Shown here in pieces: positions 3,494-31,916 of a stretch of 64,000 nucleotides of DNA. Source of the stretch: Prorocentrum cordatum (lineage: Eukaryota). How positions within the stretch are numbered: the stretch's first letter is position 1; each line of letters begins with the position of its first letter. The notes below the pieces were generated by a model that saw only the letters and a list, made by a program, of their open reading frames with translations, did not search any database and was not told the DNA's origin. The stretch is from the NCBI GenBank assembly GCA_963575745.1, contig CAUYUJ010000081.1:372001-436000 (forward strand), in the 5' to 3' direction. Both the position numbers and the translations under genes were made by a program.

Positions 3494-3537
3494 TCCTGTG
3501 TGGTCGTAGCAGCCCTGGGTCTTGCCCGTCCAGTCTC
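3494..3537 (-). CDS. Beta-helix gene exon: (G)DWTGKTQGCYDHTG; gene continues beyond the left edge
   Basis: ccccag|GA acceptor in phase 1, donor gtgagc at 3493 (or GA at 3495), high GC3. No stop-containing exon was found further left. Confidence 0.78.
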
Positions 3538-3884
3538 CTGGGGGGAGGGGCGCAGCCATCTGCCGGCCGGGTCCAGGAGTCTCTGGCGGAGACGCTCGGG
3601 ATCGCCCTTCGCAGGTCGCCTGGCCTCCATCGAAGGTCTCCCTTGGGCCTCATGGGCCTCCGTTGCGTTCTCTGACTTTCTGCGGATCCTGCTCCTCCTC
3701 CTGCTCCCCCTCATCCACCTGCAATCGCAGGCAAACATAGGCCGCTGAACGCCCAGGACTAGCTGGAAAAGAGACTTGAGACGCCCGCACGTGAAATTGG
3801 CACGAGAGAAGGGAGTGAACACGCTTCCTGGGCGCTGTGCGTCGCAAGCTCCAAGCCTTCCCCTAACAAGACTCTAGAGTCAGG

Positions 3885-4982
3885 GACGACGAAACCGACA
3901 AAGATTACGACTTCGACGACGACGACGACGACGACGACGACGACGACGGACGGACGACGACGACCACGACAACATCGACGACAACAACGAGACGGACGAC
4001 GGCCACGAACATGTCGACGAAAACGACGCTGCCGACGACGAGACTAAGACGACAACAAGGGAGTCGACGACGACAAAGACGGACTACCACAAACCTGTCA
4101 ACGACGACGACAAAAAACAACGACAAAGAGGACTACGACGACGACGAAAATTTCCGCGCAATCGATGACGGCACCGACGAAGACGATGACGACGACGATG
4201 ACGACGACAACGACAACGACGACGACGACGATGACGATGACGACGACGACGACGACTATCAACGACGAAGACACCGACGACGACGAAAACGGCCACGACC
4301 ATGCAGACGAGGACGACGACGACGTCGACGAGCGGTTCGAGCGGGCCTTGCGAGCAAACGAGCGGACGGACCCTCACTGGCGGGTCTAGCGGGCGGACCG
4401 TAACGGACAGGCCTGGCGAACGGAACAGTGAATCGAGCGGGAAGAGCAGACCCCAACTGAACGGGCTGGTCGGGCGGCCCCGATATCCAATCGAGCGGAA
4501 GGACGGGCGGGTCGAGCAGGCTGACAGCTGACCCTAACAGGCGTTCCTGGCTGGCGGAATATTGAGGCGGGCGAGTGGTGGGCTTGCGAGCAAGCGAGCG
4601 GACGGACCCTAATTGGCGGGTCGGGCGGGCGGACCCGAACTGGCGGGCCTGGCCGGTGGAACATTCAAAGGAGCGGGAGGACCCGCAAGCAAGCGAGCGG
4701 GCAACGTCGTCGTAGCCGTTGTAATCCACGGAACCGTCGTCGTCGCTGTCGTCTTCGAAAACTTCCTCCTCCTGCTAGCTGCGTTCGTCGTCGTCCGTCG
4801 TCGTCAGCGTCATCGTCGTCGGCGGCGGCGGCGGCAACGGCGGCGTCGGAATTGGTGTCGGCGTCGGCGTCGGCGTCGGCGTCAGCATCAGCGTCAACGA
4901 CAGCGTCGGCGTGGTGGTGGTGGTCGGCGTCCTCGTCGTCGTCAACGTCGTCGTCGTCGTCGTCGTCCGCCGTCGTCGTCGC
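3885..4982. repeat. (GAC)n tract, spacer, then (GTC)n tract
   Basis: GAC-rich 3885-4330 and GTC-rich 4705-4982. Confidence 0.9.
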
Positions 4983-6479
4983 CCGGGGGGGTCGAGAGAA
5001 CTGACCCCTGAAGCACCCGCAGAAGACGGTTCTCTCAAACGAAGCGGTCCCGAAAGAAAAAGGCCCTGGACATCCCGGGGCACCCTCCGGGGGGACCAGC
5101 TTCTGATCCTGAGTCGTGCTTTCCACGGTCCAGAAACCTAGAACATGCGACAGGAACCACAAAACGGCGAACAAAACGCCGGATCCCGTCCCTTCATGGT
5201 GAGCGAAATGAAGACGAGGCCGCAGGCGAAACGATTAAGCTGATCGGAGCAGCGGGCGCCGAAACTGGCGAGATTCGGCCCCTCCGGTGCAGGGGAAGGG
5301 GGGAACAAATCCGAAGCTGCGCTTGTACATGCAGCGATTTCAGAAGAAGGGTTGAGCAACGCCATGGCTCATGCATCTCCACACCTCTCGGAGTCCCGCA
5401 ATTCAGCCCCAGATCCCTGGGGGGAAATGGGAAATGGACGTGGACTCCCCAAAGAACCACTCGCAAAAACGTCGGATAATATACACACTCGGACTGGCGG
5501 CAACCGAAGCGGGGCATTCGAGGCAACCGAACATGTGCAGCTGCACTGCACACGGACAGTCACCCGCCCCCCTCGGGGGATCCGGGCTCGAAACCGAGGG
5601 CAGTGGCGGAGAAACCTTCCATCGCCTACGCGTAAGGATTCATATAGGGAGTCGGTTGCAGAACTGATGCGCCCTAGGATTTGTTGTGCCGAACCGAACA
5701 AAACAATACTTCGCCAGAGAAAAACCCCAATCAATGGATGGTTTTTGCTGAAAAAGATCTACTGGGGAACTGGGAGCCCGGAAACCCAGAACTCACCGAA
5801 ATCGGCCCGGAACCAATAACCGGGAACCCGGGAACCCGGAAACGGGAACCCGGGAACCCAGCCTGCTACCAAAATCGGAGGGCAACTGTCGCCAAATCTT
5901 TCAACTTCCGCTAAGGCTCCTTCAGTGCAAACACTGTCTGGGGAATGTAGAATGCTCCGTAGATCTAAGGAGCATTCGACGGAAAGAGCAATCAATTCGA
6001 TAGTCAGTCTCTTATTCGAAAGTGACCCTCGGCAAGAGTGACCTCTGGTGCGCGGTTTGACGGGGCCGCTGTGGGAGCCAGATCGGCGGGACCTCTGTAA
6101 TGGGAGGCGGTCGTGGGATCTGAGCTGGCGGGGACCACGGAAAAAAACGATCTGGATGGGGGGGGTGAAGCCAAACCCGCTTAAAATCGGCCTTTGGACC
6201 CATCCCAAGGTCCACCTAGTGCGAGGTTTCACCCCAGATCTGTTTTTAACGGCCCCGCGGCCCGATGACGTCCACCAAAAGCAAAAAGTCATTAATGAAA
6301 AAACTCCACACGCTAGAACCTCGAACCTCCTGGGCCACCTGAGGGACCATGCCGACTCCAAGCCGGGGGGGGCCTGTGCACCCCCACGAAAGGTCACTCT
6401 GGCGCAGGGCCAATTCTACGCAGGGCCGGCGCCACGGCGGCGCGGCAAACCGCCCAGGCCGCAGCGGGGCGGCCGCGTC

Positions 6480-6539
6480 CCCCGACGCCGTCGCCGTAGC
6501 CGGGGGAAACGCAGCCGGGAGTCTCGAAGACGGCGCCGC
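6480..6539 (-). CDS. Beta-helix gene exon: (G)GAVFETPGCVSPGYGDGVG(G)
   Basis: cccgag|GC acceptor in phase 1, GGG G|gacg GA donor in phase 1, high GC3. Confidence 0.8.
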
Positions 6540-29434: not shown

Positions 29435-29466
29435 CCTGGGCTCGAGGTTGATCTTCGGCACGGACC
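29435..29466 (-). CDS. Beta-helix gene exon: (G)SVPKINLEPR
   Basis: ttgcag|GG acceptor in phase 1, all codons end in G/C. The donor is ambiguous (GA at 29434, or GG slightly earlier). Confidence 0.7.
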
Positions 29467-29911
29467 CTGCAACCCAGAGGGGTCAGATAATTAGACGACG
29501 CTATCGGACAGGACACATTGAGCTCGTGTGGAAATAACATATCATAAACAATACGTAGGTCTGGTTGGGATCTCCAGTGCCGGATGACACTTCCGAGACC
29601 AAGAGATATAGCGGCACAGAGGGGATCATTCGGTATGTAAAGGACCAACCTTCCTCCGTGGCTGAAATAAATCCGCCGGCCCCCTTGTGGGGCCACCAGG
29701 CTGTAGGCCGAACGTTCGCAGCTTCCTGTACCAGTTGCAGCTTCCAGCTTCCACTGTTACAGTTCTGTTTCTTGCTGCTTACTGTTCCTTGTTGACTTCT
29801 TGCTGCTTACTATTCCTTGTTGATGGACCGCGCGAGGGGGGGGAGGCCCAAAACGGGCATTGTTAGCACGCCCTGAGCGTGTTATCTAAATTGTGGGTGG
29901 GAAAAAATTGA

Positions 29912-30595
29912 CACCCATCACGCAGATCGGCGGGGTCAGGGTCCAAAAACACAAGGGATTTGCTACAGTTTTAAAATCCGGCAGCACCCCTCACGCAGAT
30001 CCGTAGGGTCAGGGTCCAAAAACTCGAGGGATTTGCTACATTTCTAAAATCCGGCGGCACCCCTCACGCAGATCCGTAGGGTCAGGATCCAAAAACATAT
30101 GGGATTTGCCACATTTCTAAAAATTTGCTGGCACCTCTCACGCAGATCGGCGGGGTCAGGGTCCAAAAACACATTGGTGTTGCCACATTTCTGAAATTCG
30201 GTGGCACCCCTCAAGCAGATCGGCGGGGTCAGGGAGCAAAAACACATATGATTTGCAACATTTTTGAAATTCGCTAACACCCCTCACGCAGATCGGCGGG
30301 GTCAGGGTGCAAAAACAAATTGGTTTTGCCACATTTCTGAAATTCGGTGGCACCCCTCACGCAGATCGGCGGGGTCAGGGAGCAAAAACTCAAGTGATTT
30401 GCCACATTTCCAAAATTCGGCGGCACCCCTCACGCAGATCGGCAGGGCCAGGGTCCAAAAACGCAAGGGATTTGCCATATTTCTGAAATCCAGCAGCACC
30501 CCTCACGCAGATCCGTAGTGTCAGGGTCCAAAAACACATGGGATTTGCTACATTTCTAAAATTCGGTGACACCCGTGACGCAGATCCGTAGGGTC
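29912..30595. repeat. 73-bp tandem satellite, ~9 units
   Basis: CGCAGATC recurs at 29921, 29994, 30067 and 30141. Confidence 0.95.
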
Positions 30596-31870
30596 CCGAC
30601 ACTGCTGCACGGCGGCGCCCAGACCTCATGATTTAGTTTTTGCATCTCCCATTATCCGAGACAGGGACCAGCGGCATGGGGCGAAACCCTTACGGATAAC
30701 AGCGCAACATGCGCTTGAGCTGGACTGCGAGAATACCCGATTGGCATAGTCAGTGCTAAGGACTCACTAGCAGCTTCCGATCATGATATCAGCATCGCAC
30801 TTACGCTTGCACTCTAGACGACAGAAGCTAGAGACTGGGGGTAGAGAAGAGTCCCGAGCCCCACCCAGCGGCATCGCTAGTCTTCGGCGTCAGAGGCGTC
30901 TGGGAGCCACTTTTCAGCACAAAAGACAGTGTTCACCGATTCGTGTCGTAACACATCCAAACAGAACTGTCATAAAGGGACCCTTGCGATCGGTGCTGAG
31001 AGGCTCATCATCTCAGGTATCGCCTGACCTTGGATCCACTGCAAACCTGGGACCACGCAGCGCAAAGCGCCTGACAGCCACTGACCATCTGTGAACAACT
31101 AGCCGCGACCTCCCTCAAGAGTCGGTAACAAGTGAGCCAAACCGGCAAGATATCGAAACCGATAGGGCCAAGTGGGAGGAAAGACAGCTGAAGGGTGAGG
31201 CGGAGGAGAATGCGGAGGAAGACGACGAGCCGCAGAAATGGCAGGCAACGAGGAAGGAGTCGAGCGGAGCGAACCACCTGTGCGAGAAGGGTATCCTACC
31301 AAGGTGGGCGTGGTTTATGCTCAACATAAGCTTTCGATCAGCCTTGCAGCACACTTCGCGCGCGCCAGCGGAGCTACGGCACTGAAGCCCCACAACCTGC
31401 GAACGGACATCCCGGGGTGGGCCCAGAACGAGACCGTCCCAAAAATGAGGGGACAACGAGGAGTGGGAGGAGGAGCGCGGCAGTGTGATGAAGTGAATGT
31501 AGCTTCTCAGCCTTGTGCAGCTCTGACGCGCAGCCCTCCCAAGCTCAAGATTTACGACGCAAACCACGCCTCTGAAAGCGTCCCAGCTTTGGGCCCAATG
31601 CGCTGGCACTCGCGCCCGCGCGCTGCCCCCCCTACTGGCAGGCCTCCTGCCTTCCGGGGGTTGCTAGAGGTGCCCTTGGCCCAAGGTGCCCCCAGCTTTT
31701 CGCTCAGTCTTGGAGCCCCTGGAGCCCTCTGGGCCTCGCGAGGGGGGTTCTGGAGGCCGTGGGGGCCTTCTTGGAACTCCTGGGGGCACCTTGGTCTGGC
31801 AACACCCGAGCCAGTTTCGCCAAAAAGACCAACAAACACAGAAAGCGCAGATCCTCGTCGGGGCAGCTGC

Positions 31871-31916
31871 CTCCGGTGACGAGCTCCTTCCACGAGGTGC
31901 CGTACTTCACGGGCAC
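31871..31916 (-). CDS. Beta-helix gene exon: VPVKYGTSWKELVTG(G)
   Basis: aag|GTG acceptor, GGA G|gcag GC donor, nearly all codons end in G/C. Its phase-1 end matches the next exon. Confidence 0.75.

Follow-up and report, generated by a model that had tools for sequence, protein, structure and literature searches.

The window analysed here is a 64,000-nt stretch of the genome of the red-tide dinoflagellate Prorocentrum cordatum (GenBank assembly GCA_963575745.1, contig CAUYUJ010000081.1, positions 372,001 to 436,000 of the forward strand), 60% GC and dense in simple and tandem repeats. We found that its minus strand carries the N-terminal part of an ordinary intron-rich gene, which probably encodes an exported inverting alpha-glycoside hydrolase, similar to GH87 and GH110, of an uncharacterised family and with a substrate still unproven. 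In the corrected model, 13 coding exons on the minus strand join without a stop codon into 865 nt (288 residues), with a G+C fraction at third codon positions (GC3) of 0.86 and a coding share of 1.85%. The exon set was derived from P0008, a full-length, transcript-derived homologue of 589 residues, together with the public P. cordatum models; a codon-score scan of the window was too noisy for exon calling. Compared with P0008 residues 12-273, the 288-residue product showed 72% identity (E 2e-139).

In the direction of transcription, exon 1 (50186..50254) provides the ATG and a signal-peptide-like stretch (hydropathy 2.8 over 11 residues) and ends at a GA donor. An acidic linker is encoded by exon 2 (46521..46582; AG acceptor, GC donor), which is present in the public model P0001 (CAK0788556.1), and more of the linker by exon 4 (35340..35385; 100% match to P0001). 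Between them lies the 108-nt exon 3 (39633..39740; phase 2/2), 70% identical to P0008 residues 32-71 and with ends inferred from splice signals. This exon is absent from P0001 and from two other public models, P0183 and P0266 (CAK0788557/558); since its skipping keeps the frame, this part of the linker is a candidate cassette exon. The folded domain starts in exon 5 (31854..31931) with a capping helix and a conserved Trp and Cys, continues through the 35-nt exon 6 (30865..30899), found in P0008 and in public models, and reaches the first beta-helix strands in exon 7 (28366..28447; 85% identical to P0008). From exon 8 (27744..27806) the two public isoforms P0183 and P0266 run into intron 8 and then stop. 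Exon 9 (24084..24132) was 88% identical to P0008, while the 140-nt exon 10 (19796..19935; GT donor) was 100% identical to P0001, 98% to P0008 and 94% to the homologue P0002.

Beyond the 10,986-nt intron 10 (8810..19795), whose GT..CG ends make it the sole one of the 12 complete introns without an AG acceptor, three exons remain in the window. Exon 11 (8779..8809; 31 nt, matched by P0008) encodes a conserved Arg-Pro...Leu-Cys-Gly loop, and exon 12 (6480..6539; 60 nt, 90% identical to P0008) encodes a Glu that conservation across the family marks as near-invariant, along with Gly-Cys. Exon 13, 87% identical to P0008, has either 42 nt with a GA donor (3496..3537) or 44 nt to position 3494 with a GT donor. 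The search of 1-3495 revealed no further exon, and more than half of the protein, including its catalytic half, lies outside the window.

At the 5' end, an optional exon with approximate ends (56411..56488, minus strand) matched P0183 and P0266 at 100% and was absent from P0001 and P0008. The same two models have extra residues 5' of it, for which no convincing location was seen in the window, and which are in frame before the signal-peptide ATG. This exon and the residues further upstream are probably 5' untranslated region read as coding.

A first-pass annotation, made from the sequence of the window alone, had described a hidden gene of ten minus-strand exons at 3494..31916 for a Cys-rich, probably secreted beta-helix protein. 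All ten exons occur where they had been placed, and eight of them were matched collinearly by P0008 in a tblastn search (45-98% identity over aligned pieces), well outside what chance would give; because of this collinear mapping the gene is real. Its ten-segment join was indeed stop-free (585 nt, 195 codons), GC3-rich (0.84) and about 2% coding (2.1%). The second and third segments (29466-29435 and 29086-29049) were matched neither by P0008 nor by P0001 or any public model examined. The first segment extends at both ends to 31931-31854, and is followed by the 35-nt exon 6, which had been missed and which occurs in all three public N-terminal models. The gene is also longer than was thought, with four more exons upstream to 50254 and a continuation beyond base 1. 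Nor is it fully hidden: three public models cover it as far as 27744 or 19796. The exons starting at 8809, 6539 and 3537 are indeed missing from all four public proteins examined.

The micro-exon layout is standard for P. cordatum and unremarkable. Genes of this species are described as having on average 11.7 exons, exons of 240 nt and introns of 4,709 bp, with GC, GT and GA donors at 51%, 25% and 24% (PMC10666404). The window gene is alike in exon number (13 in the window), in mean intron length (about 3.8 kb) and in its donor mix of six GC, four GA and two GT. It differs from the typical gene in its shorter exons (31-140 nt) and in its one CG acceptor. Thus, with all 12 donors being GT, GC or GA, 11 of 12 acceptors being AG, short exons and long introns, it has the make-up of a standard dinoflagellate spliceosomal gene.

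In the public annotation the gene is scattered over four partial models. P0001 runs into intron 10 and then stops, and the fourth model, P0078 (CAK0788553.1), starts at the first Met after the intron-10 junction as placed in the homologue P0002; therefore, the split falls at intron 10. P0078 was 80% identical to P0008 residues 322-589 and retained the catalytic triad described below. Its accession neighbours CAK0788556-558, and a 670,526-nt contig is listed for both. We infer that P0078 is the missing C-terminal half of the window gene.

The predicted fold agrees with the earlier proposal of a beta-helix. AlphaFold models of P0008 (predicted local distance difference test, pLDDT, 80.2; predicted template modelling score, pTM, 0.75) and of another homologue, P0005 (71.6 and 0.80), were both right-handed beta-helices, with the P0008 model disordered before residue 79. 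Many beta-helix enzymes tied at structural Z values of 22-24, with GH87 at 17, and the fold alone therefore fails to name the family. With the P0005 model, Foldseek put the GH87 structures 6K0Q and 6K0M at ranks 1 and 2; with the P0008 model, GH87 came third. The ESM Atlas returned generic bacterial beta-helix clusters only, with CatAgl_D2 at rank 11.

Sequence profiles were more specific. In three profile searches of the PDB, GH87 alpha-1,3-glucanases were the only significant matches (7C7D at E 1.4e-7, 8.3e-9 and 1.5e-20), and all six matches of a broad profile at E<=1 were GH87. HHalign against a Streptomyces protein with both GH87 Pfam domains, CatAgl_D1 (PF22815) and CatAgl_D2 (PF22816), gave a probability of 95.9% over 100 columns. 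Three matches in a plasmid collection were actinomycete records, and the one that was checked against Pfam has both GH87 domains. An unannotated 1,365-codon open reading frame on the Streptomyces plasmid NZ_CP109493.1 (737-4834) has a C-terminal GH87-like domain that shares the triad motifs of the family; it served as outgroup only. Judged by sequence, the nearest studied relatives would be the bacterial alpha-1,3-glucanases of GH87.

The GH87 match is centred on two coils that hold D345, D368 and D369 (P0008 numbering), which lie outside the window and align to the motifs of 7C7D and 5ZRU. Across an alignment of 271 proteins, with near-identical members included and the three truncated window models excluded, these residues recurred in 220/222, 205/218 and 208/217 rows, respectively. 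In the alpha-1,3-glucanase Agl-KA the counterparts D1067, D1090 and D1091 are described as essential by mutagenesis (PMC6814745), and in the galactosidase PdGH110B the residues are D321, D344 and D345, with inversion described from NMR (PMC7939477). The triad spacing of 23/24 is that of both enzymes, with the comparison to GH110 made by residue numbers only and not by alignment.

The kinship to GH87 has clear limits. Like Agl-KA (5ZRU), Agl-FH1 (6K0M-series) and the Streptomyces thermodiastaticus enzyme (7C7D), the family combines a right-handed beta-helix with a triad in matching DGxN and GDDxxAxW coils. In contrast to GH87, it lacks the D1 galactose-binding-like domain as well as discoidin or CBM6 modules, has eukaryotic hosts and many conserved Cys, and the similarity is limited to about 100-130 residues. 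D1 was absent from all 83 members and from all 36 long distant members chosen for the check, compared to E 3.1e-50 for a Streptomyces control. With the CatAgl_D2 profile, P0008 scored 20.8 bits against a curated cut-off of 27; 42 of the 83 members matched at E<=0.01, and four of the 36 distant members passed the cut-off, over 47-130 residues only. GH110 alpha-1,3-galactosidases (PdGH110B, 7JW4) have the same fold and triad spacing; they are described as inverting, with the marine galactan lambda-carrageenan as substrate (PMC7939477). GH110 enzymes also contain a further pair of beta-barrel domains and a pocket of the exo type. They gave no sequence match in the PDB searches and stood at Foldseek rank 10 or lower. 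For the polygalacturonases of GH28 and the dextranases of GH49 (clan GH-N) there was no PDB sequence match, and neither was among the seven Pfam families matched by the 83 members at E<=0.01.

The 83 proteins came from a search with P0005 at E<=0.001. A profile search of 1.84 billion representatives at 50% identity gave 384 matches, the best 150 of which were examined. Among the matches listed, the dinoflagellate members came from Polarella, Symbiodinium, Effrenium, Fugacium, Cladocopium, Scrippsiella, Alexandrium, Zooxanthella and Amoebophrya, and one other named member was bacterial (P0211, MDG2305721.1, from a metagenome-assembled genome of Ca. Binatia). Most members are unlabelled records on transcript-sized contigs. 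The members seen came chiefly from dinoflagellates and from sequence sets of marine origin. Pattern scans, which are insensitive, confirmed 0 of 41 matches in IMG/VR and 0 of 23 in GTDB genomes as relatives (the bacterial protein came from the profile search), and NCBIfam gave no family for six proteins.

A quick tree of 66 rows with a midpoint root had two or more clades with good support that included named dinoflagellates, and several unlabelled ones. The two Streptomyces GH87-like rows, the only GH87 sampling, formed a clade of their own (support 99) on a branch of 2.5. P0211 grouped with unlabelled sequences inside the family. An N-terminal hydrophobic stretch, taken as an export signal, was present in 35 of the 43 full-length members that passed the filter, and P0008 and P0078 have a hydrophobic helix at the C-terminus. 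A minority of members contain PAN or somatomedin B domains, and P0127 consists of two beta-helix units. UniRef automatically names some members by GH87 domains. In the literature listings searched we found no study of such GH87-related enzymes in dinoflagellates, although CAZy or paper supplements could hold a GH87 assignment.

The earlier interpretation, a probably secreted polysaccharide-active enzyme with a beta-helix fold, is partly supported and can be made more specific. Most likely, the protein works like GH87 and GH110, as an inverting alpha-glycoside hydrolase. The complete protein would have about 590 residues, with a signal peptide, a flexible linker, a right-handed beta-helix domain rich in disulphides and, at the C-terminus, a membrane anchor. 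It would enter the secretory pathway and reside on the surface of the cell or inside a vesicle or food vacuole, where an alpha-linked polysaccharide would be bound in the beta-helix groove and cleaved by the single-displacement (inverting) mechanism of GH28, GH49, GH87 and GH110. The first Asp of the GDD pair would serve as the acid, with the upstream Asp and the second Asp activating water. Because D1, which closes one end of the GH87 cleft, is missing from the family, we expect either that the groove is open or that the protein's own Cys-tied loops close the cleft.

Within this hydrolase reading, alpha-1,3-glucan is a tentative first choice of substrate; an alpha-galactan or sulfated galactan is possible, with lower probability, and so, to the same degree, is another alpha-glycan. 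For thecal plates, the components described are cellulose and protein (PMC12223506); there are reports of sulfated galactans for dinoflagellates (PMC12073197), and the wall glycans of Symbiodiniaceae are called unknown (PMC10438907). Our literature search found no such report for alpha-1,3-glucan. Nor was this glucan borne out for the exopolysaccharide of Crypthecodinium, where the polymer is described with mannose or glucose (1,6-Man/Glc) and galactose (1,3,6-Gal) residues (PMC5742836).

A bolder reading, which we hold with somewhat less than even confidence, is that of an undescribed eukaryotic family of GH28/49/87/110 type: a sister of GH87, D1-less and disulphide-stabilised, maintained in several paralogous clades across dinoflagellates from Amoebophrya to coral symbionts, and cutting an alpha-glycan, probably 1,3-linked, that is so far undescribed in these algae and in their prey. 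The value of the locus lies in the uncharacterised, assayable GH87-related family and in the CG acceptor of intron 10, and not in the gene layout. GH87 is described as bacterial (PMC6814745), and the wall and mucus glycans of dinoflagellates are poorly known. A conserved enzyme, predicted to be exported and with an intact triad, in bloom formers, parasites and coral symbionts would offer a handle on the alpha-glycans that are made, remodelled or eaten by these organisms. The family could found a new CAZy family.

Besides its function, the state of this gene copy has to be considered, since the acceptor before exon 11, on which the first-pass annotation was silent, is CG, one A short of the textbook CAG|G. 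Going upstream, the first AG is met only after 46 nt (8855), and the 12 canonical in-frame rescues all displace the junction, most of them adding 6-39 codons. The donor of intron 10 is a textbook AAG|GT, and its pyrimidine tract (0.82) is richer than that of any other of the 12 introns. An assembly slip of one base is the account of the CG that we would put first, at a little under an even chance. A real or recent lesion of this copy, which would mostly mean a dead copy, is a lesser yet serious candidate; working GT..CG splicing would be rather improbable, and cryptic rescue is left with what little remains. Words of 19000-28500 were searched in 24 read runs, giving shares of 0.06-0.09 and no run with half the words, a result uninformative on expression or on the CG. 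Likewise uninformative on both were the four of these runs aligned on 19600-24180, which yielded short repeat-like matches; none of the pieces listed fell on an exon or crossed an exon joint.

If the CG is real and intron 10 is retained, the copy would be dead or dying and yield only truncated N-terminal products; the reading of the family would still stand in other species. We consider this possible but unlikely. The junction, defined by homology, is without AG; P0001 does read into intron 10 and stop; and the protein homology searches found no full-length P. cordatum protein. Still, the 13 exons are free of stops and frameshifts at a GC3 of 0.86, the exons downstream show 76-90% identity with P0008 over aligned pieces, and the triad of P0078 is intact. 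One missing A would account for the site, and the assembly is described as a hybrid with long reads (PMC10666404).

Splicing of intron 10 with its GT..CG ends unchanged, through a spliceosome that tolerates them or in the manner of the non-canonical transposon introns of Amoebophrya, would fit the intact and conserved flanking exons, and gene finders tuned to GC and GA donors would be expected to overlook such a site. We find it distinctly less credible than a dead copy. The lack of a terminal inverted repeat, the slide of only 3 nt, the donor and the pyrimidine tract are what a normal intron would look like after damage to its AG, and AG acceptors are described as nearly universal in Amphidinium carterae (PMC12584245). 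The 60-nt ends of intron 10 (19795-8810) did not pair as in a hairpin or introner element (p 0.06; duplex z +0.6), and the best 600-nt inverted match (score 26) was away from the ends; the intron could still be an old, decayed element of this kind. Error or not, the locus illustrates one non-AG acceptor coinciding with a gene split over four partial public models.

With respect to function, two alternatives to a hydrolase were weighed. A polysaccharide lyase or C5-epimerase (AlgE/RbmB-like) is improbable, even though the AlgE A-modules (2PYG, 5LW3, 8JA4) share the compact beta-helix without accessory domain and have the highest or tied structural Z. They gave no sequence match, and the AlgE catalytic set of Tyr, Asp, His and Asp is not the triad of the window family. 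More improbable yet is a non-catalytic carbohydrate-binding surface protein, a PfbA-like adhesin or lectin that would serve in contact with prey or in building the wall. Foldseek did return PfbA among its matches, the window protein looks membrane-anchored, and some members have lost triad residues (six of the 70 sequences chosen for the tree were dropped by the motif filter), but the triad is 94-99% conserved though distant members are only about 20-30% identical. Some distant members (P0159, P0174, P0237 and P0229) have altered triad residues and may themselves be non-catalytic.

The gene model has two points against it. The peptide of exon 6 alone scored a mean of 18.5 compared to 17.8 for shuffles, so that this exon rests on P0008 and the public models and not on the whole family; and the rejected segment 29466-29435 had GC3 in 10 of 10 codons. 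This segment has AG|G and a GA donor, and its 32 nt fits phase 0 to 2 as exon 6 does; nothing supports its use. A real isoform that follows the ten-exon path, with 29466-29435 and 29086-29049 included, is nonetheless hardly believable: open and with AG acceptors, it scored equal or better in three of 44 homologues, but the corrected path outscored it over that stretch in the other 41, it loses a Cys that exon 6 restores and that is conserved in 135 of 142 aligned rows, the peptides of both segments were not above their own shuffles, the second had GC3 in only 6 of 12 codons, and no public model examined uses either.

As for the remaining content of the window, Rfam gave no match. Candidate nested genes or transposon reading frames were set aside: the 171 stop-free stretches of at least 150 codons had a repeat-derived look, judged on inspection only, with no Pfam scan. 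Intron 10 holds three copies of an element with a 16-nt tandem array (9422-10216, 18080-18872 and approximately 12580-13380), two of which are 97.7% identical over 797 nt. These near-identical copies suggest that the intron has grown recently. Long degenerate (ATC)n tracts lie in introns (24457-27123, 69-569, 2400-2725 and 42564-43010), one of about 2.3 kb. The introns also hold a dispersed family of 10-11-nt repeats, along with 77-nt and 73-nt arrays (41830-42540, 52069-53533 and 29912-30595).

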